Shown: piece after piece, positions 1,460 through 49,422 of the stretch
Position numbering within the stretch: position 1 is the first letter of the stretch
Layout of the letters: the number at the start of each line of letters is the position of its first letter
Source of the DNA: a bacterium
GTDB taxonomy: Bacteria > Patescibacteriota > Patescibacteriia > Patescibacteriales > XYC2-FULL-47-12
Assembly (NCBI GenBank): GCA_030698385.1
Contig: JAUYLZ010000033.1
Location: forward strand, 9,905 to 73,904
Length of the DNA stretch: 64,000 nt
Reading direction: 5' to 3'
Notes under the pieces: model-generated
Databases searched by the model: none
The model's input: only the letters and a program-made list of their open reading frames with translations
What the model was told of the DNA's origin: nothing
Position numbers and translations under genes: made by a program

Positions 1460-3769
1460 ATGTATTATAAATTAGAAAAGTTAGTCCTGACGCCGACCTC
1501 AGGCAAGCCATCAAGCACGGCTGAAGTTTTCATCAGCAATCCGCAAATTGACCAAGAAGCAATTTTGGGCAAACTTTTTTTCGCCTGCGAAATTGAATCT
1601 GTAAAATCAGATGCTCTAAAAATCATTAACTTCTTCATCTCTGCTCTGCCCAATAATTATTACCAGAGCGAAAAAATTTCTCTGCGTGAAAAAATGGGCA
1701 AAATAAACATCGCTACTTTGTTTGAAAACTCCATTGCCAGAGTAAACGCTGAGTTTGAAAAATTCGCCAAAAAAGAACGCGTCAAAATTGATGGAAAAAA
1801 AGTAAACTTAGTCGCTGGCGTAATCACCAAAAGTGAACTAATCTATAGCACGGTTGGAAGTATGCGCGCTATGCTTATCCACACCGAAGGCAAAAGTGAA
1901 AATGCTGAATCTTTAATAACTGCCGGCGAAGCCAATAAAAAAATTTACAAAATTGCGGTAATTGAAGAAAATGAAACTAGAAAAAAAGTAGATTTCAGTA
2001 AAATTTTTTCCAACGTAACTGAAGGGAAAATACCGCTGGAAGGTTATTTCGTTTTTACCAACGATATTTTGCCTGAGTATATTAGCAATAAGCATTTGAG
2101 CAAAATTATCACCACGCTGCCGCTGCCAAGCGCGGTTGAACAAATCAAATCCCAACTTCACAAAATCAATAACTACGTCACTTTCGTTGGCATTATTATA
2201 AAAAACTCCAGCCAGCCGCAAATAAAACGCTCAATTCCAAAAATGCAACTCCATGTTACTGCCAATAACTCGCTTGAAGAAATGCAATCAACCGAAAACC
2301 GAACATCAAAATATCTTTCTCCTTTTGGCGCTATAAATAAAGACAGAATTATAAACTTTTTTAAAAAAAATACCATCGGCCTGCTAAAGTCAGGCGGTTA
2401 CCCGCGCGAAAACTCAACCATTAGAGACAAAATATTTTTAACCAGAAAAAGCCCTTTTCGAGTAATACTCAGATTTTCCAATTATCTAAAAAATCTGTTC
2501 TCGCTCATAATCAACATTTTTTTCTACCTTATACAAATATCTTTACACCCGGTCTTACTAATCCGAAAAATTTCCCTTTTAACAAAAATTATACTCTCAA
2601 AAATTTTAGGATTTTTTTCTTTTTTGTACTTCTGGTACAAAAAACTGTCGCCGATTAGCAAAACCTGGCTGGTAATCTTTGTAATCTGCGCGTCTTTATT
2701 TACCTACAATATCTACAGTATTACCGGCTCAAAAAATCAACAAATCAACGAAGTCAGCTATCAGGAAAAAGTACAAACTATTCAACAAAAACAAAATCAA
2801 ATTGAAGCCGCCCTGCTCTACAAAGATGAAGAAAAAGCAAAAGCGCTCATTGAAGAAACAGCCGGATTAATTACTGAATTGAATTCCTATGAAAAAATTG
2901 ATGGGCGTTTAATAGAAACACTGCTTAGCAAAAATGCCGAGCAGCTAAAAAAAATCAGCCATGTAATCACCATTGATCCTCAAGAACTAATAGATTTTTC
3001 TAATTTGGAAAAAAATTCTCAACCGCAAAGTATGGCGCTGGTTGACACAATAGTTATAGCCGCCAACCCAAAAACCGGCACTCTCTTTCAGTATAATATC
3101 AAAGATAAAACAGCCAGCAACTTTGCCCTGACAAAAAATATAAACTTTGGCGCTCAGCCTGACAGTGATGAAGCTATTTTTATCTCCGCTCAAGGCGGTG
3201 TCAGAGTAGATAAAACCGGCATTATCCAGACCATTGATGAAAAAATCATAGACAGCCTTAATGAAATAAATGATATTGCCTATTTTAATAGCCGGCTATA
3301 CGTACTATCTGCGGCGAATAATAATATTTTGCGGTTTGCAAAAAATTTCGATACCTACGAAGAATGGGTAAAAGAAAATATAGATCTTAGCAATGCCGCC
3401 AGTGTCGCGATTGATGGCTATATCTATGTATTGAAAAATAATGGCGAAGTATTGAAATTTCTCTCCGGCTATACAAATAAATTTGAATTAAGTAAAATTA
3501 ATCCGCCGCTAACCAGCCCGACAAAAATTAAATTGACCGGTGACAGTGAAGCAGGCCAAATTTATATTCTTGAACCAAGCGCCAATCGAATTGCTGTATT
3601 TAGCAAGGAAGGAAAATTCATAACTCAATATCAGCTAGAAAATCTAACTGATTTAAAAGATTTTTTAGTCATCAAAAATAATGACGCGAAAAGCGTTAAC
3701 GCCAAAGATAAAATTCTGTTGCTGAGCGGTTCTAAAATTTACGAAATTGAAACTAGCGCTATTAAATAA
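1460..3769 (+). CDS. membrane signalling protein: N-terminal degenerate PP2C/SpoIIE-like domain, central TM segments, C-terminal beta-propeller-like repeats
   Basis: 769 aa. N-terminus has PP2C-like motif order (NLVAGVITKSELIYSTVGSMRAMLIH ~ vanvGDSRaylvr; GYFVFTNDIL ~ llLcSDGLwd; TFVGIII ~ DNiTvvvv). The canonical Asp residues are partly replaced. Hydrophobic block at aa ~330-420. C-terminus has repeated YVL/IYVL/IYIL strands. Confidence 0.55.
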   Translation: MYYKLEKLVLTPTSGKPSSTAEVFISNPQIDQEAILGKLFFACEIESVKSDALKIINFFISALPNNYYQSEKISLREKMGKINIATLFENSIARVNAEFEKFAKKERVKIDGKKVNLVAGVITKSELIYSTVGSMRAMLIHTEGKSENAESLITAGEANKKIYKIAVIEENETRKKVDFSKIFSNVTEGKIPLEGYFVFTNDILPEYISNKHLSKIITTLPLPSAVEQIKSQLHKINNYVTFVGIIIKNSSQPQIKRSIPKMQLHVTANNSLEEMQSTENRTSKYLSPFGAINKDRIINFFKKNTIGLLKSGGYPRENSTIRDKIFLTRKSPFRVILRFSNYLKNLFSLIINIFFYLIQISLHPVLLIRKISLLTKIILSKILGFFSFLYFWYKKLSPISKTWLVIFVICASLFTYNIYSITGSKNQQINEVSYQEKVQTIQQKQNQIEAALLYKDEEKAKALIEETAGLITELNSYEKIDGRLIETLLSKNAEQLKKISHVITIDPQELIDFSNLEKNSQPQSMALVDTIVIAANPKTGTLFQYNIKDKTASNFALTKNINFGAQPDSDEAIFISAQGGVRVDKTGIIQTIDEKIIDSLNEINDIAYFNSRLYVLSAANNNILRFAKNFDTYEEWVKENIDLSNAASVAIDGYIYVLKNNGEVLKFLSGYTNKFELSKINPPLTSPTKIKLTGDSEAGQIYILEPSANRIAVFSKEGKFITQYQLENLTDLKDFLVIKNNDAKSVNAKDKILLLSGSKIYEIETSAIK

Positions 3770-3908: not shown

Positions 3909-4379
3909 TTACTTCAAAGTAGCTTGTCCGCCGGCGCCATCAATTTTTTTCTTCATCTCTTCAGCTTCTTCCTTTTTCACAGCCGTTTTGATAACTTTTG
4001 GCGCGCCATCAACCAAGTCTTTGGACTCTTTCAAGCCAAGTCCGGTGATTTCTTTCACTACTTTAATTACAGCGATTTTATTTTCGCCAACGCCAGTGAG
4101 TTCTACATCAAACTCTGATTTTTCCTCAACTGCCGCCTCACCGCCGCCGGCGCCCGGCATCGCGCCCATCATCATTGCTGGCGCGGAGGCGGAAACTCCA
4201 AATTTTTCCTCCAGGACTTTGACTAATTCAGACAAATCCAAAACTGACATTTTTTCGATTTCAGACACAATGGACTGAAACTTTTCCGGAACTTCAACTT
4301 TTTTTTCTTCTTTTGTTTCCGCAGTTGGAGCAACCTCAACTTTTCCCTCTGCGGCATTAGTTGTATTTTCTTCTGCCAT
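3909..4379 (-). CDS. rplL: 50S ribosomal protein L7/L12
   Basis: 156 aa. N-terminal dimerisation helix, Ala/Gly-rich hinge ([15 protein letters not shown]), and C-terminal domain [31 protein letters not shown]...KKIDGAGG typical of L12. Confidence 0.95.
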
Positions 4380-4436
4380 ATTTTTTTTAATTAATTATTA
4401 TTAAATTATTATTTTATAAACCTTTAACTCTTAAAC

Positions 4437-4961
4437 TTAACTCTTCTTTTCTCCAACTGCTTTCAGGACATATAAGACATTTTTTAAATTTCCGGCCAAA
4501 GCGTTTACAAATCCTGATATTGGCGCGTTTATTGTGCCGACTACCATGCCATAGAGCTGGTGCTTGGATGGCAACTGTGCCAGCGCTTTTACTTGCGCGG
4601 CATCAATGTACTTTTTTTCCAATACACCGCCGATAATTTCCATGCTTTCGTGTTTTTTGGAAAAATCATTCAAAACTTTTGCCGGCGCGACCTCGTCATC
4701 GTAGCTAAAAATAGCCGCTACCTCGCCAGACATTTCTTTTGCTTTAACGCCGTTAATTTCACTTTCGGAAAAAATACGGTCAAGCAATGTTTTTTTGGCG
4801 ACAATATACTCGCTGCCGGCTTGACGGAACTGCCGACGCAAATCATTGATATCATTGGCGCTAGTGCCAAAAAATTTGGAAAAAAATACAGATTTGGAAC
4901 GAGACAATTTGTCTGTTAAATCTTTTATGATCATCACTTTTTGTTGTTTCGTAATAGGCAT
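4437..4961 (-). CDS. rplJ: 50S ribosomal protein L10
   Basis: 174 aa, immediately upstream of rplL on the same strand. L10-like sequence (KQQKVMIIKDLTDKL...IVAKKTLL). Confidence 0.9.
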   Translation of the reverse strand: MPITKQQKVMIIKDLTDKLSRSKSVFFSKFFGTSANDINDLRRQFRQAGSEYIVAKKTLLDRIFSESEINGVKAKEMSGEVAAIFSYDDEVAPAKVLNDFSKKHESMEIIGGVLEKKYIDAAQVKALAQLPSKHQLYGMVVGTINAPISGFVNALAGNLKNVLYVLKAVGEKKS

Positions 4962-5378: not shown

Positions 5379-6026
5379 TTATTTTTCTTCATGTATTTTA
5401 GTAAATATTAAGTTACCGTTCCAGGAATTATTTATTAACTTTTTACCAACCCACACTTTATTCTTCTTGTAGCCTGGCCAATAATCAGGATCATTAATTA
5501 ATAAACCAGACACTTCACAATTATTATCAGTTTTATAGCCAAAACACACAACCAGGTGGCCACCTTTCTTTTTTACTTTACCATTTTCGTCAAAATTACC
5601 ACCGCCTAGCCCAGTAGTAACTGATAATATCAATATATAACCATCTTTTATTAATCGCGCTAAACTTTCAAGTGATTTCATTTTTTTTCGAAAAGATTTA
5701 ATATTATAACTCTTTAGTATCCTAACCATAGAATCATGAATCCACCCTCGCTCCTTATCATAAGCATTAATTTGCTGACCTAATCTTATAATATCGCCAA
5801 ATTTAATATGTTTTTCTTCTATGGCATGAATAACCATTTCTAAGCAAGCCGCACCACACCCCTCTTCTCTCCAATACTTTGCTTCCGCTAAATTGAGTAT
5901 TCCCCGCTCTAAATAATTTGATTCTGTAATATCTTGATCATGAAAAAAATCTTTCTCAATAACAATATATTTTTCATTCGAAAATAATTTTTTTTTCTTA
6001 ATTAATTTTTCTAATTTAAATAACAT
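5379..6026 (-). CDS. peptidase C39-like (papain-fold cysteine peptidase) domain protein, standalone
   Basis: 215 aa. CGAACLEMV matches the C39 catalytic Cys motif (CGxAcLxM). GHLVVCFGY...LINDP matches the C39 His/Asp region (HyvVl...i.DP). No transporter domain and no signal peptide. Confidence 0.6.
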   Translation of the reverse strand: MLFKLEKLIKKKKLFSNEKYIVIEKDFFHDQDITESNYLERGILNLAEAKYWREEGCGAACLEMVIHAIEEKHIKFGDIIRLGQQINAYDKERGWIHDSMVRILKSYNIKSFRKKMKSLESLARLIKDGYILILSVTTGLGGGNFDENGKVKKKGGHLVVCFGYKTDNNCEVSGLLINDPDYWPGYKKNKVWVGKKLINNSWNGNLIFTKIHEEK

Positions 6027-6112: not shown

Positions 6113-6817
6113 TTAATAAGTACTGCTAATTACCGTACCATTGCACTTATTATTTTTAAATAAATTATCCAGATTCCCCAACTTTTTCCCATTCATTATC
6201 ACAACTTTTAGTTTCAACTTTTCAGCCAATTTTGAAGCAATCGGATCAAAAGGCTTGCTCATGCCCGGCGTCCACTTATCCCCCACTATTTTTCTAAAAT
6301 CAGGCCAGTTAATTTTTTCAATTTTTTTCGCATCTTTAAACTTCTTGGGGTCTTTAGTATAAACATAATCAATATTGGATAAATTTATTACTTTATTAAC
6401 GCCATAAGCATCCGCCAACCTCACTGCCACATAATCGGTTGACCAGCCCGGTTTCCAGCCGCCAGCCACAATAATTTTTTCCTTAAACTTAATTTTTTTG
6501 TCAGCATGCCTGATAATTTCCGGGTGCGACCAGTCATAAAAAATCGTACGTACCAAATGCGCGTTCAGGCGTGAAGAATGAATCCCCAGCCAGTCGCGGT
6601 CCTCGCTTTTGATAGCTAGCACTTTTTGCGCCGCTTGCGCGTACTGGCGCGCGGTTACCCCGCCGCCGGCAACAATAATAAACTTCTTGCCTTTTTTTAT
6701 CTGTTTGACAATGGTTGCTCTGAATTTTTTTAAATATTGCCAGTCGATTCCTGAGTGAGGCACAATGAGCGAACCGCCCAATGAAACTACATACATTTGA
6801 CTATTAACATTTGACAT
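6113..6817 (-). CDS. pyrH: amino-acid-kinase family protein, UMP kinase-like (archaeal-type PyrH)
   Basis: 234 aa. VVSLGGSLI ... FIIVAGGGVTARQY matches UMPK/amino acid kinase N-terminal and glycine-loop motifs. Length fits the short archaeal-type UMPK. Confidence 0.6.
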   Translation of the reverse strand: MSNVNSQMYVVSLGGSLIVPHSGIDWQYLKKFRATIVKQIKKGKKFIIVAGGGVTARQYAQAAQKVLAIKSEDRDWLGIHSSRLNAHLVRTIFYDWSHPEIIRHADKKIKFKEKIIVAGGWKPGWSTDYVAVRLADAYGVNKVINLSNIDYVYTKDPKKFKDAKKIEKINWPDFRKIVGDKWTPGMSKPFDPIASKLAEKLKLKVVIMNGKKLGNLDNLFKNNKCNGTVISSTY

Positions 6818-7247
6818 TTAACTATAATTTATTATTTAAAAGTTTTTTTCTAAATGCTGTAAGTTGATTACCTAGTGCTTCAGCTTTTAATAGAAAGTCG
6901 TTATGAGTATTTAGAGAGATATATTTGCTATCAAGAGCGATATCTAAACATGCTACTACTTCATTTAATGATGTATGCGCTAAATTAAGAAAATGAGCAA
7001 AGTCCTTATCAGTTCCTCTATCAGAACCTTCTGCAATATTTAATATTATTGAATACAATGCTCTCCACATCTGCGAAGATAAGCAATACTTTTCATTAGA
7101 TGGAAAATCTTGATAGATTATTAATTTAACTTCACAACAAAACATTCTCGCATCTTTATAAACTTGAAAATTTCTAAATCGAAATTTTTTTATAAACACA
7201 GAGCTAGTCATAAAAAAAGTTAAATGTTAATAGTCAATAGTCAATTG
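6794..7247 (-). mobile_element. TIR-bounded mini-cassette A carrying a four-helix-bundle gene (IVS-like element)
   Basis: ~29-bp imperfect inverted repeats (24/29 match): catttgactattaacatttgacatttaac (6794-6822) versus the reverse complement of gttaaatgttaatagtcaatagtcaattg (7219-7247). They abut the ORF on both sides. The element sits exactly between the mltG stop (7249) and the pyrH-like start (6817, inside the left repeat). Confidence 0.4.
6822..7211 (-). CDS. four helix bundle protein (TIGR02436-like; '23S rRNA intervening sequence protein' family)
   Basis: 129 aa, helical, with the family hallmark AEG motif (NIAEGSDRGTDKDFAHFLNLAHTSLNEV). Confidence 0.75.
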   Translation of the reverse strand: MTSSVFIKKFRFRNFQVYKDARMFCCEVKLIIYQDFPSNEKYCLSSQMWRALYSIILNIAEGSDRGTDKDFAHFLNLAHTSLNEVVACLDIALDSKYISLNTHNDFLLKAEALGNQLTAFRKKLLNNKL

Positions 7248-7248
7248 T

Positions 7249-9560: not shown

Positions 9561-10418
9561 ATGTCTTATCTAAAAGGAGTTTTTCTTGTCTTTTTGGCGA
9601 GAAAAAAAATAATTAATAGCCAGTTGTCTCTATTTAAATTTATTTTTATAGGGATTTTTTTATACTCAACTTTTCTGCCAAAAACTGTTCAGGCGAGCGC
9701 TGTGATAACTGAAAATATCTTTGCCAGCATAAATAATGAAAGAAAGAAAATAAGTCTCAATGACTTAACAATCAATCCCTTATTAAATCAGGCGGCCGCT
9801 CAGAAAGCTCATGATATTTTATCTCAAGAACGCTTCGCTCATAACTTCCCAGATATGAAATTCTCCGACTGGGTAAAAGAAACTGGTTATGAATATTCAG
9901 TAGTCGGAGAAAATTTGGCTATAAATTTTACTAACAACGACACCTTGTTTAACGCCTGGCTTTCTTCCCCGTCACACAAAAAAAACATTATACATCCTGA
10001 TTTTAATGAAGTTGGTTTGGCAGTAGTTGAAGGCAGTTGGTTTAATAATAATACTTCCGTAGTGGTGGCAATATTCGCAAGTCCAAAAATAGTAACCGCC
10101 TTAGAACAAACTGTTCCAACTACATTAGCAAGCAAACATAGGAGTTACTCTCCCCCGCTGCTGACATCCAACTTAGCTGAAAATTACTATTCTCATATTA
10201 ACTCAAATACTATCGAATTGGAATTTGCCGGCGCCAACCCAATCGTGCTTTCTGAAGTAGAAAAAAATAATACTGCCACAACATTTTATTTTGTTATGGC
10301 AGCCAAGGTCATGTTAATTTTTATGTTCTCAATGCTGATGCTTATGTCTATACTATATTACAGTTATTACTTTTCAAAACTAAACAAAAAAATACAACTG
10401 TTAAATAATCATCCATAA
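9561..10418 (+). CDS. membrane-anchored CAP/SCP (YkwD-like) domain protein
   Basis: 285 aa. N-terminal TM/signal. The SCP-like block (AHDILSQERFAHNF...GENLAINFTNNDTLFNAWLSSPSHKKNIIHPDFNEVGLAVVEG) is followed by a C-terminal hydrophobic anchor. Confidence 0.7.
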   Translation: MSYLKGVFLVFLARKKIINSQLSLFKFIFIGIFLYSTFLPKTVQASAVITENIFASINNERKKISLNDLTINPLLNQAAAQKAHDILSQERFAHNFPDMKFSDWVKETGYEYSVVGENLAINFTNNDTLFNAWLSSPSHKKNIIHPDFNEVGLAVVEGSWFNNNTSVVVAIFASPKIVTALEQTVPTTLASKHRSYSPPLLTSNLAENYYSHINSNTIELEFAGANPIVLSEVEKNNTATTFYFVMAAKVMLIFMFSMLMLMSILYYSYYFSKLNKKIQLLNNHP

Positions 10419-39263: not shown

Positions 39264-39683
39264 CTATTTATTTAAATATTTATCAACAGCCTTATTTACC
39301 AGCAGGTCCGCCGCTTTGTTAAACTCCCGTCTGACATGAAAAAATGTCACTTTTTTAAACTGCTGTGATAAATTGTATATTTTGAAAAATAATGGCGCTA
39401 ATTCCTTATTTTTTACTTTATATTCAAGTTTTAATTGTTTGACAACAAGTTCGGAATCCAAATAAAAAACCAACTCCTCGGCGTCCAGTTTTTTTGCCTC
39501 TTCCATGGCGCGTAAAACAGCTCTGTACTCGGCTTGATTATTCGTCGTCTCACCAATGTATTCAGCAATTTCATTAATCACCTTTTTCTTATCATCAGCG
39601 ATAACCACGCCAATGCCGGCCGGGCCGGGATTACCGCGCGCGCCGCCATCGGTGTGGATGATTAATTTTTTATGTGAAGTCAT
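39264..39683 (-). CDS. rnhA: ribonuclease HI
   Basis: 139 aa. IHTDGGARGNPGPAGIG ... NNQAEYRAVLRAMEEA ... DSELVVKQ, RNase H catalytic DEDD pattern. Confidence 0.85.
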   Translation of the reverse strand: MTSHKKLIIHTDGGARGNPGPAGIGVVIADDKKKVINEIAEYIGETTNNQAEYRAVLRAMEEAKKLDAEELVFYLDSELVVKQLKLEYKVKNKELAPLFFKIYNLSQQFKKVTFFHVRREFNKAADLLVNKAVDKYLNK

Positions 39684-39700
39684 TGTGTTGTATTAATAAT

Positions 39701-40230
39701 TCAAATCTACAAAATAATGCAAATCTACAAATTTATGCAAATATTGCAAAAAATAATTTATGCAAATTACGCCTTTTTATAGTATAAACCGTTTAGAATC
39801 CTCTTAGGAACTAAACGCGGTTGCCTAAAATTTACTAAAATTCCTAAATGTAAATTTAAAGTTACTAAATATCTCTTTACCTGATAATAATCTTCTTTAG
39901 TTAAGGAATCTCTGGCTTTGAATTCAACTATTATCTTATTTTCAATTATAAAATCTACTATACACCTAACATCTCCTTTCCCATATTGATGGTCGTTGAA
40001 GCGATATTCTCTGATATACTTAAATTTCTTTTGTTGCAATAGCTTTTCAAAATAATCTCCGTATTGTTTTTCGTTACGAAAGCGACCTAAATCCTTATGC
40101 GCCTTAAAGAATAAACCAACTATTTCATAAGATAATTCTTTGTGTATGCATTTATCTTCTGCCATAATATAATTTGCATATGAAATTTTGTAGTATTTGC
40201 ATGTTAATTTGTAGTATTTGCATTATATTT
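39701..40230 (-). mobile_element. TIR-bounded mini-cassette B carrying a GxxExxY gene
   Basis: Left flank 39701-39776 and the reverse complement of right flank 40171-40230 share ~60 bp of imperfect inverted repeats. These are built from atgcaaat and ctacaaa units (each side has ttgtagtatttgcat / atgcaaatctacaaa twice). The right repeat overlaps the last ~9 codons of recJ. Confidence 0.35.
39767..40165 (-). CDS. GxxExxY protein (TIGR04256-like, PD-(D/E)XK fold)
   Basis: 132 aa. LSYEIVGLFFKAHKDLGRFRNEKQYGDYF ... GDVRCIVDFIIENKIIVEFKA ... YQVKRYLVTLNLHLGILVNFRQPRL matches the GxxExxY family consensus. Confidence 0.75.
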   Translation of the reverse strand: MAEDKCIHKELSYEIVGLFFKAHKDLGRFRNEKQYGDYFEKLLQQKKFKYIREYRFNDHQYGKGDVRCIVDFIIENKIIVEFKARDSLTKEDYYQVKRYLVTLNLHLGILVNFRQPRLVPKRILNGLYYKKA

Positions 40231-42003
40231 TAAATCAATAACTTTCAACTGCACCTCCCGCCGGCCATTCCATTCATTAATATCAAGATAGTAAACTAAA
40301 TCAATAAACTGGCCGATTTTTAAATTCAGCCATTCCGCCGGCGCGCTAAACGCTATGGCGTTAAAAAGTTTTTTGTCCTCTGAGCACAATCTCAGTTTCA
40401 AATGCTGATTGTCGTTGCCCATCGTCTGCATATGCGCGACCAACAACTTTTTGGTTATAAACTTGGGCTGTTGGTTGCCCATGCCAAACGGCCTCAGCTT
40501 CCGCAGAGCGTTGTACAAATCCTCGTCGATATTTTTAAAATCAACTTCCAGATCAATTTCCAGAGTCGGTTCAAGTTCCGTGTTTTTCAATTTTTTCGCG
40601 GCGATTTTTTGGCATTTTTTCAAAAAAGGCAAAAGAGAATCTTTGTCCTTGACCGTAAAACCGCAGGCTTGTTTGTGTCCGCCGTAGGTTGATAAAAATT
40701 CAGCGCACTCCTCAAGCATTGCCGTAATGTCAAACTCCGGGATGCTCCGGCCGGAACCGGTCGCTTCCCCGTCTTTATCAGTAATCGCCAAAGATGGCCG
40801 GTAGTACTTTTCGGTTAGTTTGCCAGCCACAAGCCCCATCACGCCAGCCGACCACGGAGCCGTTTGATCAGTTTCTTTTTCCTGAAGACGGACAAGCGCT
40901 TGTCCGTTTTCTTTCGCGCTAACACTTAATAACTTTGGCCAAACGGCGAATAAAATTTTGTCCTCTTGCTTTATTTCCGCATCCGCCTGTTCAAAAATAT
41001 CCAGCGTAATCTCCTGGCGTTCTTTGTTTTTGCCGTCCAGTTCTTTGGCTACTTTTACAGCTTCAGCTTTATCCTCGGTAACCAAGAGTTGGTAGGCGTT
41101 ATTAGCGTGATCCAACCGGCCCATAGCATTTATTCTTGGCGCCAGCTGAAACCCAACCTGCCAAGTATCAATTTCTTTGCTATTGCCGTTTTTGTCAGTA
41201 TCGGACTGTGAAACTTTGATTAATTGTTTGAGGCCAACGCGCTGTGTTTTATTTAAAACAACCAAGCCGTATTTTACCAAAACGCGGTTCTCGTCAAGCA
41301 GTGGCATCAGATCGGCAATAGTGCCAATGGCGACTAAATCCAATAGCCATTTTTCAAAAACCTCGGCTGCTTTTTTCTGGCTTTTTTTTAATAATGCTTG
41401 CGCGAGCTTAAACGCCACGCCGCAACCGGCCAAACCGTCAAAAGGATAGGTCTCACCCGGCACCTTTGGATTGATAATGAGGCAATCGGGTAGCTCATCA
41501 GGGGCTTCATGGTGATCGGTAACGATGATATCTGTGCCTAAATTTTTACCGAAATTAATCTCGCCGACGCTGCGGATTCCCGTGTCAACGGTAATGACCA
41601 GTTTAGTTCCATTTTCAGCTAAGTATTTTAGCGCTTCATTATTGAGGCCGTATCCTTCGCTTTTGCGGTCCGGAATATACACGCTGATTAAATTTTTGCC
41701 AGGCTGCAAAAATTCCAATGTCTTGAAAAGCAGCGCGGTGGAGGTAACGCCGTCAGCGTCATAGTCGCCATAGACGGTGATTTTTTCATTTTGTTCAATA
41801 GCCTTAAAAATCCTCTCAACCACTGCTGGCATGTTTTTGAAAAGAAATGGATCGTGCAACCGCTCGGTATAGTTCGGGTTTAAAAAATTATTCACCTGAT
41901 CAGGCGTAACGCCGCGCCGGCTCAACAACCGCAAAACCACCGGATTTATATCTTTTACATCTAAAATTAAAATTTTTTTATTTTCAACCAACCGCCACTT
42001 CAT
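40204..42003 (-). CDS. recJ: single-stranded-DNA-specific exonuclease RecJ
   Basis: 599 aa. DHH motifs (VYGDYDADGVTSTALL, DHH at ...VTDHHEAPD), DHHA1 (GGHKQACGF), and C-terminal OB region. Confidence 0.9.
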   Translation of the reverse strand: MKWRLVENKKILILDVKDINPVVLRLLSRRGVTPDQVNNFLNPNYTERLHDPFLFKNMPAVVERIFKAIEQNEKITVYGDYDADGVTSTALLFKTLEFLQPGKNLISVYIPDRKSEGYGLNNEALKYLAENGTKLVITVDTGIRSVGEINFGKNLGTDIIVTDHHEAPDELPDCLIINPKVPGETYPFDGLAGCGVAFKLAQALLKKSQKKAAEVFEKWLLDLVAIGTIADLMPLLDENRVLVKYGLVVLNKTQRVGLKQLIKVSQSDTDKNGNSKEIDTWQVGFQLAPRINAMGRLDHANNAYQLLVTEDKAEAVKVAKELDGKNKERQEITLDIFEQADAEIKQEDKILFAVWPKLLSVSAKENGQALVRLQEKETDQTAPWSAGVMGLVAGKLTEKYYRPSLAITDKDGEATGSGRSIPEFDITAMLEECAEFLSTYGGHKQACGFTVKDKDSLLPFLKKCQKIAAKKLKNTELEPTLEIDLEVDFKNIDEDLYNALRKLRPFGMGNQQPKFITKKLLVAHMQTMGNDNQHLKLRLCSEDKKLFNAIAFSAPAEWLNLKIGQFIDLVYYLDINEWNGRREVQLKVIDLKYNANTTN

Positions 42004-42079: not shown

Positions 42080-42511
42080 ATGCTCATGATCTTTGCCTTG
42101 GTAGTTTCTATAATAGTTTCTACAATATTAATTTTCCTTATCATTCTTACACTTCTTCGTGGAAAGACAATGGAAAATAGCGAACTATGTTTTATTTTTA
42201 TTCTTTTTATGATGTTTTTGACTATGTCTCATGTGTGCTGGGTAAAATATTTTCAAGGGATACCCAGCGACGAGCGACAATTATTCTCTTCACAGGTATA
42301 CACGGTTTTGTGGATCTGTCAGCCGGATCCAAGTGAACAATTATATATTGTTAAACTGGATGATAATCGAGTTTATCAATTCTCCAAACTGCCATCCTCA
42401 CGGGTATTTCGTTATGACCGTGGTAAAGAAAATCCCTTCATAACATTGCCCAATGATGATCTGATAATTGCGCCCGCCCTGATACCATCAGCAACTGGCG
42501 CAAGTGAATAA
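42080..42511 (+). CDS. hypothetical membrane protein
   Basis: 143 aa. Strong RBS aaaggag 8 bp upstream. Two TM then a soluble domain. Followed by an intrinsic terminator. Confidence 0.5.
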   Translation: MLMIFALVVSIIVSTILIFLIILTLLRGKTMENSELCFIFILFMMFLTMSHVCWVKYFQGIPSDERQLFSSQVYTVLWICQPDPSEQLYIVKLDDNRVYQFSKLPSSRVFRYDRGKENPFITLPNDDLIIAPALIPSATGASE

Positions 42512-42535: not shown

Positions 42536-42573
42536 AAAGCCCTCTGCAAATTTAATGAGGGCTTTTTATTTTT
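42536..42573 (+). terminator. intrinsic terminator
   Basis: aaagccctc-tgcaaatttaat-gagggcttt followed by ttatttttaa. Confidence 0.6.
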
Positions 42574-42574
42574 A

Positions 42575-42674
42575 ATACAATAACATTGGCAAAACGGTAA
42601 AAGCAAGCATTGCCAAAATCATAATAATCATAACCGCACGAGTTATTATTTTTTTAATAGTTTTCTTCTTCATA
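42575..42674 (-). CDS. possible small hydrophobic peptide (33 aa)
   Basis: MKKKTIKKIITRAVMIIMILAMLAFTVLPMLLY. Starts where the murJ start codon would lie relative to the duplicated cassette flank. No RBS check possible, could be spurious. Confidence 0.2.
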
Positions 42675-42894
42675 TAATCCTACTAATTACGAATTAACTA
42701 CAAATTTACCAATCGCTTCTACTGAAGCTTTGATAAATTTACTAAACGCATAAATTTTACTCCATTAGATCTAATTATATATGGCGCTTGTCTTTTAAAT
42801 ATTAATTCTTTTATTTTAAAATTATTAGCGACAGCTCTTTCGTAATATTTCTCTTGGAATTATTAGTATATTCTAAATAATTAGTAATTAGTAG
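42670..42894 (-). pseudogene. decayed copy of the GxxExxY cassette (two internal deletions), TIRs intact
   Basis: 42670-42760 is ~97% identical to 47765-47849 and 42762-42856 is ~93% identical to 48015-48110. Terminal repeats ctactaattacgaatt (42670-42685) and aattagtaattagtag (42879-42894) are preserved. ~165 bp and ~105 bp of the ORF are missing. Confidence 0.6.
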
Positions 42895-42910
42895 GAGTTA
42901 GAGTATCAGG

Positions 42911-47758: not shown

Positions 47759-47764
47759 CTAATC

Positions 47765-48252
47765 CTACTAATTACGAATTAACTACAAATTTACCAATCG
47801 CTTCTACAGAAACTTTGATAAATTTACTAAACGCATAAATTTTACTCCATGTGGCGTAAAGTTTGCTAAAATAGCAAGCTTTAAATTAGTGGCCTTAAGA
47901 TACGCATTTACCTGATCTATGTTTTGCTTATTGAAGTAATTACCTTTTTTTAGTTCAAGTATCACCTTGCCGGCAACCAAAAAATCAAGATAATACCTGC
48001 CAATAATTTTACCATTAGATCTGATTATGTATGGTACTTGTCTTTTAAATATTAATTCTTTTACTTTAAAATTATTAGCGACAGCTCTTTCGTAATATTT
48101 CTCTTGGTATCCATATCCCAATTCGTTAAAGACAGAATATAATACGCCAACAATTTTATAACTCAAATCTGGATAGACCAAATCCTCCCTAATAACTCGA
48201 CGAGAATACATAGATAGTTATTAGTATATTCGAAATAATTAGTAATTAGTAG
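47765..48252 (-). mobile_element. TIR-bounded mini-cassette D carrying an intact GxxExxY gene
   Basis: 16-bp terminal inverted repeats ctactaattacgaatt (47765-47780) and aattagtaattagtag (48237-48252; 15/16 match). The right repeat abuts the rseP stop codon (48253) and the left repeat starts 6 bp after the murJ start codon (47758). Confidence 0.45.
47804..48211 (-). CDS. GxxExxY protein (TIGR04256-like, PD-(D/E)XK fold)
   Basis: 135 aa. LSYKIVGVLYSVFNELGYGYQEKYYE ... GRYYLDFLVAGKVILELKK ... VNAYLKATNLKLAILANF family consensus. Confidence 0.8.
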   Translation of the reverse strand: MYSRRVIREDLVYPDLSYKIVGVLYSVFNELGYGYQEKYYERAVANNFKVKELIFKRQVPYIIRSNGKIIGRYYLDFLVAGKVILELKKGNYFNKQNIDQVNAYLKATNLKLAILANFTPHGVKFMRLVNLSKFL

Positions 48253-49422
48253 TTAGCTGAAGAACTTAGTAATGTCGCGATAAGTAACTAAAATGACGAG
48301 AAATATGAGCAAGGCAAAACCGGCGTTATGAATAAAAGCTTCGACTTTTTCCGGCACGGCCCGGCCCCGAATTTTTTCAATGATTAAAAATAAAACCCGC
48401 CCGCCGTCCAAAGCCGGAAACGGCAAATAGTTTAGTATTGCCAAGTTGACAGATAATATCGCCGTGAACTGCAATAAATAGACAAATCCCAACTGAGCCA
48501 TCTGACCAGTAATGGTTGCAATGCCGACCGGTCCGGACAAACTCTGGCTAACCCCGACGCCGGTAAAAATATCTCTAAACAACCCATAAAAAGCGGCGAT
48601 GATAAACCAGATCAAAAATACCGTGGATTTAATTCCCTCCCAAATCGCTCGGTACCAAGGAAAACTTACTAAACCGGTCTCCGCGATGGCAACGCCAATG
48701 CCAACCTCATCGCTCTCTCCCAAAACCTTGGGTGTTATCGCCAAATCAAACTCTTCACGGCCGCGTCTTAATTGATAATCAAGCTCTTGCCCCGCCTTGT
48801 CAGCTAAAAAAGCCTGTAACTGTGTATAGTTGCTAAACTGCTGGTTATTAATGCTCAAAATCACATCGCCAAACTGAACGCCAGCATTGGCCGCGGCTGA
48901 ATCTGGCAGTACCTGCATTATCTGAATGTTACGATCGCGCACTATCGCGGCCGGACTGACGCCATCCAAGTCCTGAGGCAGTCCCAACATATAACCAAGT
49001 GAAATAAAGAGAGCGGCAATGATTATATTCATAGTTACTCCGGCTGACAAAATAATACAGCGCTTCCAGATTTTTTGGTGACCAAAGCTATCGGTTTCGT
49101 CTTTGCTGTCTCCTTGTTCTCCTTTTATTTTTACAAAACCGCCCAATGGCAGCCAATTTATGGAATACACCGTGCCGTCAGCGTCATCAACTTCTCTGCT
49201 GCCCCAAACCACCTTCCACTTTCTTGATTTCTTTGGCGCCTCACTTTCATCAGCGCCGGCTTTATTAATCGGACGATAAATACCAATCGCGCGCGGCGGA
49301 AAGCCCCAGCCAAACTCCGGACAACTAACGCCGAATTTTCGCGCGGTCCAAAAATGGCCTATTTCATGAGCGAAGACAAGAATGGATAAAATTACGATAA
49401 ATATAATAATAGTGGTAAACAT
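48253..49422 (-). CDS. rseP: RIP metalloprotease RseP (site-2 protease, M50) with PDZ domain
   Basis: 389 aa. HEIGHFWTARKFGV HExxH in TM1, PDZ (AANAGVQFGDVILSINNQQF), LDG motif ALDGGR. Confidence 0.85.
   Translation of the reverse strand: MFTTIIIFIVILSILVFAHEIGHFWTARKFGVSCPEFGWGFPPRAIGIYRPINKAGADESEAPKKSRKWKVVWGSREVDDADGTVYSINWLPLGGFVKIKGEQGDSKDETDSFGHQKIWKRCIILSAGVTMNIIIAALFISLGYMLGLPQDLDGVSPAAIVRDRNIQIMQVLPDSAAANAGVQFGDVILSINNQQFSNYTQLQAFLADKAGQELDYQLRRGREEFDLAITPKVLGESDEVGIGVAIAETGLVSFPWYRAIWEGIKSTVFLIWFIIAAFYGLFRDIFTGVGVSQSLSGPVGIATITGQMAQLGFVYLLQFTAILSVNLAILNYLPFPALDGGRVLFLIIEKIRGRAVPEKVEAFIHNAGFALLIFLVILVTYRDITKFFS

Follow-up and report, generated by a model that had tools for sequence, protein, structure and literature searches.

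Intervening sequences (IVSs) of bacterial ribosomal RNA (rRNA) genes are known from Coxiella burnetii and Leptospira, and also from rRNA genes of the candidate phyla radiation (CPR). They consist of an open reading frame (ORF) of ~120–130 amino acids (aa) between terminal inverted repeats that can form a long stem, with short tandem repeats between stem and ORF. In the 23S rRNA IVS of Coxiella, the terminal stem measures 28 bp, the repeats beside the ORF are tandem GACAGAT heptamers of variable copy number, and RNase III excises the element in vitro (PMC4990558). The distribution of IVSs is sporadic and horizontally transferred (PMC4990558, PMC11270868), and their origin and mobility have been open questions since about 1990 (PMC4990558). 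The element described here is a GxxExxY cassette between the genes recJ and rnhA in a 64,000-nt stretch of a Patescibacteriota genome (contig JAUYLZ010000033.1, positions 9,905–73,904; hereafter the window). It resembles the IVSs in build and distribution, and a 23S_rRNA_IVP-family ORF elsewhere in the window has arms of the same kind. Comparison with related genomes shows a discrete, selected unit, mobile both horizontally and within genomes, whose ends are the tips of its inverted arms. The ORF-bearing rRNA IVS is the nearest described thing, from which the cassette differs in lying between protein-coding genes and not in a 23S or 16S rRNA helix, in carrying a predicted PD-(D/E)XK protein and not a four-helix bundle of the 23S_rRNA_IVP / S23p type, and in having arms with a conserved oriented pentamer array, conserved tips and no RNA-specific signature.

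Free-standing homing endonuclease genes, such as seg and mob of phage T4 or the gene for the PD-(D/E)XK homing enzyme I-Ssp6803I, lack terminal inverted repeats, and their spread depends on homologous repair, which co-converts the flanks. REP/REPIN-RAYT systems and the IS200/IS605 family have HUH (Y1) transposases and subterminal hairpins. Integron cassettes carry attC only 3′ of their gene and stack at one attI beside the integrase. The Correia repeat enclosed elements of Neisseria lack a gene, and duplication of TA is described for them. They are transcribed with their neighbours and form a hairpin that RNase III can bind or cut (PMC2649163). No description of the present cassettes was found in the literature searched on GxxExxY, PDDEXK_3, PF13366, TIGR04256 and IVP.

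The window has 38% GC and almost all of its genes lie on the minus strand. By its relatives, its host, an ultra-small bacterium of groundwater type, belongs to the CPR in the neighbourhood of Falkowbacteria. It was compared with related genomes and metagenome contigs, whose loci carry L numbers, and with homologous GxxExxY genes gathered from metagenomes and genomes; all sequences are metagenome assemblies. The gene order lepA-recJ-rnhA is kept in ~33 genomes. The closest relatives by LepA, L172 and L176 (82% and 80% identical), are syntenic with the window.

One line of evidence for mobility comes from L082 (Falkowbacteria CG10_44_15), which carries a homologous cassette at the same junction. 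Protein identity between the window and L082 is 65% for RecJ, 72% for RnhA, 45% for FtsL and 73% for LepA, and 92% for the GxxExxY protein. At the nucleotide level, identity in 40-nt bins is ~62% in recJ, 92–100% across the cassette and ~60–65% in rnhA, and the step sits exactly at the TATAAT tip (40227) on one side and at ..GCATTAT (39714) on the other. Synonymous divergence (dS) of the cassette ORF is 0.18 between the window and L082, and 1.1–1.2 between the window and L085 as well as between L082 and L085. The host flanks group differently: those of L082 and L085 are 81% and 77% identical to each other, and both are 65–70% identical to the window. The cassette tree therefore contradicts the host tree, and these comparisons show that the window lineage acquired or replaced its cassette long after the host genomes had diverged.

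Related cassettes are also found at unrelated loci. In L089, genes for T2SSE and Translin enclose a cassette that is 81% identical and has the same tips, and four more pairs of 78–86% identical cassettes occupy unrelated loci; in a fifth such pair (L152/L167), both cassettes precede the same gene. Where the tips of a pair can be read, similarity starts at (T)ATAAT[GCT]C[GA]AAT and stops at ATT[CT]G[GCA]ATTATA. Conversely, L172 is empty at all three window cassette positions compared, and L176 is empty at the recJ–rnhA junction. In other Falkowbacteria this junction has ORF-less inserts. In L174 it contains an ORF-less remnant, a solo 3′-type arm with four ATTCG units (10043–10123), and ORF-less, hairpin-like inverted-repeat inserts occur there in L009 (~5669–5870), L019 (~4085–4372) and L056 (~4281–4450). 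These inserts look like cassette scars or derivatives of the miniature inverted-repeat transposable element (MITE) type. The insert in L019 has CCTGCC repeats nested inside it.

Between the cassette tip and the rnhA start codon, the window carries a short stretch (39684–39713) that is without counterpart in the empty L172 and L176 sites. Its repeat unit (39696–39713) has diverged at host level between the window and L082, where a homologous unit, GGCTGACTTGAATT, lies outside the cassette tip. Units of this type, ATTTGAAT, match the arms of L070, and we read the window unit as the relic of an earlier occupant that the present cassette probably replaced. The recJ–rnhA junction shows gain, replacement, decay and loss alike.

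Insertion left a direct mark on the host gene upstream. The TIGR00644 model covers only residues 20–589 of the 599 residues of window RecJ, which ends in ..IDLK-YNANTTN*; the codons from Y to N and the stop lie in the outermost repeat module, and the cassette begins directly after the conserved Lys codon. In ~30 cassette-less RecJ orthologues, the conserved motif QLK(I/V)(I/V)D(I/L)(K/R) is followed by 1–6 unrelated residues. In L172 and L176, where the site is empty, the end of recJ extends 11 and 8 nt into rnhA (..GATTTGAAAAATGAAATATAA..), and RecJ ends in K-NEI* or K-IHE*. Insertion just 5′ of the rnhA ATG removes the native end of recJ, so that recJ reads into the arm as far as the first in-frame stop. 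The window recJ has lost its native last three codons and stop, and its C-terminus has been rewritten by the cassette. The arm encodes the tail YNANTTN*, which for that reason is the same in L082 and L085; in all, three genomes that carry the cassette and have RecJ proteins only 65% identical to that of the window end in this tail. In L070, which has an older cassette with TTCAAAT units, RecJ has a tail of 18 arm-encoded residues (NNSNIQMNSNTSNTNNSN, 5686–5746); the tail consists entirely of translated TTCAAAT-type units and is Asn/Ser-rich and of low complexity. An earlier note on this DNA had proposed that the final ~9 residues of RecJ derive from the element. The comparison with cassette-less orthologues, together with the tail shared by L082 and L085, supports the proposed origin, while the length has to be corrected, as only seven residues were replaced.

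The point of insertion is best read at a second site, where the window has a decayed cassette copy between lepA and a 33-aa ORF. In L172 the empty site is TAA-cacataact-ATG, and the filled one in the window is TAG-cctgatact-[element]-ATG. The element touches the ATG, the 9-nt spacer has been kept whole and nothing is duplicated, in a comparison between the window and a ~80%-identical species. No target duplication was found between the two copies of this family (cassette 2) in the window either. Insertion next to start codons is common: the 3′ tip lies no more than 4 nt from the downstream ATG in 17 of 31 cassettes with a recognisable tip, and no more than 10 nt away in 24 of them. In both cassette-2 copies and in several relatives of the recJ–rnhA cassette (cassette 1), the 3′ tip stands directly against the downstream ATG. 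Two conventional routes of spread were considered. Classical transposition would leave duplications, which were sought at two-copy and at filled/empty sites and not found, with palindromic TATA blurring the other sites. Homing by homologous repair was rejected, since there are no co-converted flanks and identity falls to the host level within a few nucleotides of the tips.

A separate observation concerns L138 and L142 (ORFs 1977–2372 and 1016–1411), two strains whose left flanks and cassettes are 99.8–100% identical. Just past the 3′ arm, identity drops to ~78%, as though a recombination breakpoint lay at the end of the cassette.

The arms themselves are composite (Table 1). On the coding strand, the cassette reads TATAATGCAAATACTACAAA-ttaac-ATGCAAATACTACAAA-atttcat-ATGCAAAT-tatatt-[ATG..ORF..TAA]-TTTGCAT-aaattattttt-TGCAATATTTGCAT-aaa-TTTGTAGATTTGCATTAT, with tips TATAAT.. 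at the 5′ end and ..ATTATA at the 3′ end. Six of the ten ATGCAAAT sites of the window lie within this ~510-bp span, on the plus strand at 39717, 39735 and 39760 and on the minus strand at 40172, 40195 and 40216, so that the two sets face each other. Gapped alignment of 39684–39769 with the reverse complement of 40163–40240 extends over ~66 nt with a score of 62; shuffled flanks score 20.0 ± 3.4, with a maximum of 35, and none of 500 shuffles reaches 62. A repeat search finds direct units within the arms at a spacing of 21 nt on the right and of 18 and 25 nt on the left. In general, the arms are made up of two to three modules of ~20 nt, each with two ..C(G/A)AAT units 8–12 nt apart. The earlier note's description of composite inverted repeats thus holds, and they are not AT-rich noise, as the same architecture recurs in homologues. 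The repeated 8-mers that it singled out are part of a wider, family-wide ..C(G/A)AAT array. The coding strand has no sigma-70-like promoter in the arms or close to them, and the arms contain no terminator. The cassette gene is promoter-less and co-oriented with the operon.

Flanking inverted repeats with z-scores above 4 are found in 69 of 82 homologous cassettes (median 8.0). Among 145 other genes at the same loci, the median z is 0.37 and 6% pass the same threshold; the controls with high scores are mostly additional GxxExxY or 23S_rRNA_IVP ORFs, the five best being two of the former and three of the latter (PF05635). The median spacers on the two sides are 38 and 51 nt, which means that the arms take up all of the intergenic DNA. 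In 5′ arms, the oriented pentamer C(G/A)AAT (CRAAT) occurs 1.6–3.9 times per 70 nt, compared with 0.13 times in controls, and its complement ATTYG 2.4–3.5 times per 70 nt in 3′ arms and 0.28 times in controls. This 10- to 30-fold enrichment is strictly oriented, even where the proteins are less than 52% identical. At least two motifs in each arm are present in 39 of 67 cassettes and in none of 136 controls. The spacing of CRAAT units peaks at 8–9 and 11–12 nt. Cassettes of the IVP family use other units, namely TAACATT, CTAAA or GTTAG.

The arms are also conserved more strongly than the gene they enclose. Arm identity is 98% between the window and L082 and 90% between the window and L085, while divergence at synonymous sites of the ORF in these two comparisons is 16% and 57%, respectively. 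The 5′ arm alone shares 98% identity with its counterpart in L082 and about 95% with that in L085. The arms are therefore under strong purifying selection, which makes plausible the suggestion of the earlier note that the repeats could be operator or protein-binding sites. In 18 of 23 cassettes, the variable base of the tip at one end covaries with that at the other (29% expected). The spacing of the first two CRAAT units is 9 nt at the 5′ tip and 8 nt at the 3′ tip in 8 of 17 cassettes, as in the window (40207–40227 vs. 39714–39732), and the reverse is seen in one of 17. This asymmetry leaves one unpaired base when the arms pair, and could mark the left and right ends as different. Overall, the constraint acts on the arm sequence and not on pairing alone.

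The gene between the arms matches the GxxExxY family models TIGR04256 (70.6 bits, cut-off 35, E = 1.3e-19) and PF13366 (PDDEXK_3; 73.3 bits, cut-off 22, E = 2.8e-20). These are the only Pfam and NCBIfam matches in the cassette ORF, which has no HUH domain and no DDE-type transposase among them. This query has 876 matches at E ≤ 1e-5. Residues D71, E81 and K83 are invariant across 47 homologues, and the ratio of nonsynonymous to synonymous divergence (dN/dS) is 0.05–0.17. An AlphaFold2 (AF2) model (mean predicted confidence, pLDDT, 92.9) has a minimal PD-(D/E)XK core in the order alpha-beta-beta-beta-alpha-beta. Its nearest solved structure in Foldseek is Cas4 SSO0001 (4ic1; E = 5.5e-4, template modelling (TM) score 0.54), and further matches are lambda-exonuclease-like proteins, AddB, Hjc and splicing endonucleases. 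An intact PD-(D/E)XK nuclease under selection is thus predicted. Identity as a defence system was set aside, as the defence-system models gave nothing beyond marginal Cas4-like matches (E about 4e-3).

Table 1. Features of the recJ–rnhA cassette, related cassettes and neighbouring genes in the window.
Feature	Position	Strand	Details
Whole mobile cassette (5′ arm, GxxExxY ORF, 3′ arm)	39714–40227	-	514 bp
5′ arm TATAATGCAAATACTACAAAttaacATGCAAATACTACAAAatttcatATGCAAATtatatt	40166–40227	-	62 nt; two 16-nt modules and one half module
GxxExxY / PDDEXK_3 gene, predicted nuclease	39767–40165	-	132 aa
3′ arm TTTGCATaaattatttttTGCAATATTTGCATaaaTTTGTAGATTTGCATTAT	39714–39766	-	53 nt; inverted copies of the 5′ units
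Last 7 codons of recJ (YNANTTN) and TAA stop	40204–40227	-	Within the 5′ arm
Material from cassette tip to rnhA ATG, read as older	39684–39713	-	Unit TTTGTAGATTTGAATTAT at 39696–39713, then 12-nt spacer
recJ, upstream host gene	40204–42003	-	TIGR00644, 527 bits, E = 3e-158
rnhA, downstream host gene	39264–39683	-	RNase H family matches and synteny
Cassette 2	47759–48256	-	GxxExxY ORF 47804–48211; arms 48212–48256 and 47759–47803
Decayed copy of the cassette-2 family	42674–42901	-	Between lepA and the 33-aa ORF
23S_rRNA_IVP cassette (four-helix-bundle, Avd-like)	6793–7248	-	ORF 6822–7211; arm units ACATTTGAC / TATTGAC
33-aa hydrophobic ORF, conserved	42572–42673		lepA–recJ spacer; also in L172
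Terminator-like hairpin	about 42540–42565		lepA–recJ spacer
Orphan 143-aa ORF	42080–42511	+	No Pfam or NCBIfam match

The probable explanation, held with some confidence, is a selfish, self-recognising mobile cassette, akin to the rRNA IVSs, whose inverted arms are its functional ends. Each arm would offer an array of sites to a sequence-specific binding protein, most likely the nuclease that the cassette encodes; the arms are read in this way because the motif is specific to the cargo, is conserved beyond what pairing needs and is spaced at roughly the helical turn. The arm-bound protein may pair both ends and make DNA breaks, which could allow the unit to be copied or exchanged into gene junctions. 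In transcripts that read through the operon, the arms would also pair into a long imperfect hairpin around the ORF, as in rRNA IVSs, and the hairpin may allow processing by an RNase III-type enzyme that makes the insertion tolerable.

Several points weigh against this explanation. In 53 of 54 cases the cassette ORF has the orientation of its upstream neighbour, and in 49 of 54 that of its downstream neighbour; a DNA transposon with symmetric ends would not give such co-orientation without selection or an asymmetric target. PD-(D/E)XK enzymes hydrolyse DNA and none is known to join it, so that the nuclease alone could not be a complete transposase. The 23S_rRNA_IVP cassettes share the build but carry no nuclease. 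Two GxxExxY genes on plasmids from outside the CPR have no CRAAT arm arrays, and the architecture may therefore be lineage-restricted: a perfect inverted repeat of 11 nt, ACACGGATTCG, encloses the gene in L170 (1507–1896; Treponema saccharophilum plasmid), and a direct repeat of ~26 nt, CAGATTTAATCCGTGTACCTAT.., encloses that in L171 (1510–1884; Fusobacteria plasmid). The flanking TATA is palindromic, and a duplication of 2–4 bp could be hidden at some sites. With a best LepA match of only 82% identity, the empty sites used come from different species; the filled/empty pairs available lie below 90% nucleotide identity, and the insertion point and the lack of duplication were read at ~75–80%. 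The literature searched gave no experimental report on the activity of any GxxExxY protein, and the function of PF13366 is given as 'Unknown' (PMC3424549).

A wider proposal is possible but tentative. The GxxExxY and 23S_rRNA_IVP cassettes might together constitute a hitherto unrecognised, autonomous class of mobile elements that inserts without target duplication, ends in inverted arrays of short protein-binding units recognised by the small protein of the cassette itself, and has a fixed polarity of insertion, at the 5′ edge of start codons within operons or, in the IVP branch, at the tips of rRNA helices. This class would be the active, ancestral form of the rRNA IVSs, and GxxExxY would be a new mobility nuclease.

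It is somewhat unlikely that the cassette is instead a passenger moved in trans, with arms recognised by a recombinase or transposase encoded elsewhere and with GxxExxY as cargo for addiction, defence or repair, in the manner of integron cassettes or pdif modules. Such a passenger could account for the same build around cargo of two kinds that are not related (PD-(D/E)XK and four-helix bundle), for the persistence of ORF-less and ORF-deleted derivatives, and for a cargo that, as a hydrolytic nuclease, does not join DNA; the lack of duplication also fits site-specific or single-strand recombinases. However, the arm motifs differ by cargo family, which a single enzyme in trans would not predict, and the units within a module are direct repeats and not dyads, unlike the core sites of Xer or other tyrosine recombinases. 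No recombinase or transposase was found among the odd-strand ORFs of the window or in motif scans, a weak negative that covers 64 kb only; sites of the Xer or tyrosine-recombinase type and genes for RNase III or recombinases were likewise not found in the window.

An account at the RNA level, in which the arms pair in the recJ-cassette-rnhA transcript and RNase III excises the cassette RNA and separates the host messages, is unlikely as the principal explanation, although it could coexist with mobility. Selection for the stem would then explain the conservation of the arms, with mobility as a secondary matter. The Coxiella 23S rRNA IVS (PMC4990558) has a matching build, 23S_rRNA_IVP ORFs with the same flanks are present in these genomes, and co-orientation with the operon is near-absolute. 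The Correia elements of Neisseria show that inverted repeats in transcripts can be RNase III substrates (PMC2649163). A terminal stem is included in both the minimum free energy (MFE) and the centroid fold of the transcript (z = -3.06), and the pairing energy of the arms is -39 kcal/mol vs. -22 for shuffled arms. However, the mismatches in 51 arm pairs carry no RNA signature, with 62 of G.U type, 60 of A.C type and 144 transversions and hence no excess of G.U. The pairing energies of the sense and antisense strands are equal (-39.2 vs. -39.0, p = 0.8). With no strand-specific RNA signature, the RNase III model is not ranked first. Pairing alone also leaves unexplained the likeness of units within one arm, as well as the CRAAT units and TATAAT tips that are kept across proteins 30–50% identical, and the middle module of the window keeps its CAAA core yet loses complementarity (CTAC vs. 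TTGC). An Rfam scan of 39500–40400 found no known RNA family at E ≤ 1, and 20 related cassette loci contained no rRNA and no Rfam match.

A purely regulatory role, in which the units are operators bound by GxxExxY or by a host factor that controls expression of the cassette gene, rnhA or recJ, is improbable. Purifying selection on the arms, motif arrays at roughly helical-turn spacing and the position of the arms against the start codons of the cassette ORF and the downstream gene are all compatible with operators, but the coding strand offers no sigma-70-like promoter in or near the arms, and the sharp transfer boundaries, the copies at unrelated loci and the conserved tips would be left without explanation. 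Chance similarity of low-complexity, AT-rich DNA, to which the AT-rich region and a total ATGCAAAT count in the 64-kb window equal to the shuffle expectation might point, counts as refuted by the inverted-repeat score, the clustering and strict orientation of six of those sites, the recurrence of the architecture in homologous cassettes at a rate far from that of control genes, and the conservation of the arms beyond synonymous sites.

The self-recognising mobile cassette has partial likenesses among other known elements. As with free-standing homing endonuclease genes, a small nuclease gene sits between conserved genes and shares their orientation, diverged genomes are filled at the same site, the cassette tree conflicts with the host tree, and gain, decay and loss occur at one site. 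Unlike homing genes, it has sharp boundaries at its tips with flanks ~62% identical, and related copies at unrelated loci. DNA transposons with terminal inverted repeats and MITEs share with it the inverted repeats, the conserved tips and copies at different loci, including two in the window genome; no transposase was found among the other window ORFs tested, and the sole ORF of the cassette is of PD-(D/E)XK type. The Correia elements and similar MITEs likewise have terminal inverted repeats and an intergenic site, and ORF-less derivatives exist here too, but the ends of the cassette enclose an intact, selected ORF and show no duplication at the one readable site.

REP/REPIN-RAYT and IS200/IS605 elements pair an enzyme gene with its own cognate, hairpin-forming repeats, and share with the cassette the lack of target duplication, a strong orientation bias and ORF-less hairpin derivatives in intergenic DNA; the cassette differs in its long inverted arrays and in having no HUH domain. 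Integron cassettes are similar as promoter-less single-gene units that are co-oriented with transcription and have imperfect inverted repeats with an unpaired base. In contrast to these, the present cassettes have arms on both sides of the ORF and are scattered singly between housekeeping genes. The units of a module are not dyads, unlike the 28-bp Xer (pdif) sites with their 11-6-11 layout, and no tyrosine-recombinase motif was found in the window.

The cassette at recJ–rnhA is not alone in the window. The earlier note had counted it as a third cassette, and the window does contain two more full cassettes of the same build, as well as the decayed copy. Cassette 2 carries a GxxExxY ORF (94.6 bits against TIGR04256) between arms with an inverted-repeat score of 36 (shuffles 15.7 ± 2.8). 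It lies between a gene at 48253–49422, in the position of an M50 peptidase gene in L172, and murJ; its 3′ tip adjoins the murJ ATG (47758), and the stop codon of the upstream gene (48253–48255) is in the arm. The site is empty in L172. The decayed copy, whose site is also empty in L172, has kept both arms, and its ORF has two internal deletions; the rest is ~95% identical to cassette 2. The ORF of the third full cassette matches PF05635 (98.5 bits) and TIGR02436 (89.3 bits), and the inverted-repeat score of this cassette is 37 (shuffles 14.5 ± 2.5). It also sits between two protein-coding genes. As its 3′ arm overlaps the first in-frame ATGs of the gene at 6113–6817, the annotated N-terminus of that gene may be arm-encoded.

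Cassettes interleave between successive genes of single operons. In L144, two GxxExxY cassettes (502–894 and 1330–1716) lie between consecutive genes of one cluster, one of which is an 88-aa cysteine-rich ORF. One GxxExxY and one IVP cassette (1956–2369 and 3096–3464) are found among pilin-like genes in L168. In L152, a 3′-type arm stands directly before the ORF of the next cassette (~1870–1980). The spacer between lepA and recJ measures 908 bp in the window and 130–300 bp in most relatives.

For the rRNA IVSs, the question of origin and mobility becomes testable, since the same architecture has been caught moving between genomes and between loci, at the junctions of protein-coding genes. Filled and empty sites, together with one version that has an intact predicted nuclease, provide concrete substrates (arms, tips and empty junctions) and a candidate enzyme. 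The cassettes also give the large orphan family GxxExxY / PF13366 its first functional context. In annotation, arm-encoded tails and N-terminal extensions will appear as artefact-like features of neighbouring genes. In the streamlined genomes of the CPR, the cassettes remodel operons without gene loss, in that C-termini are rewritten, overlapping gene pairs are split, and the contexts of stop and start codons are supplied by the element.

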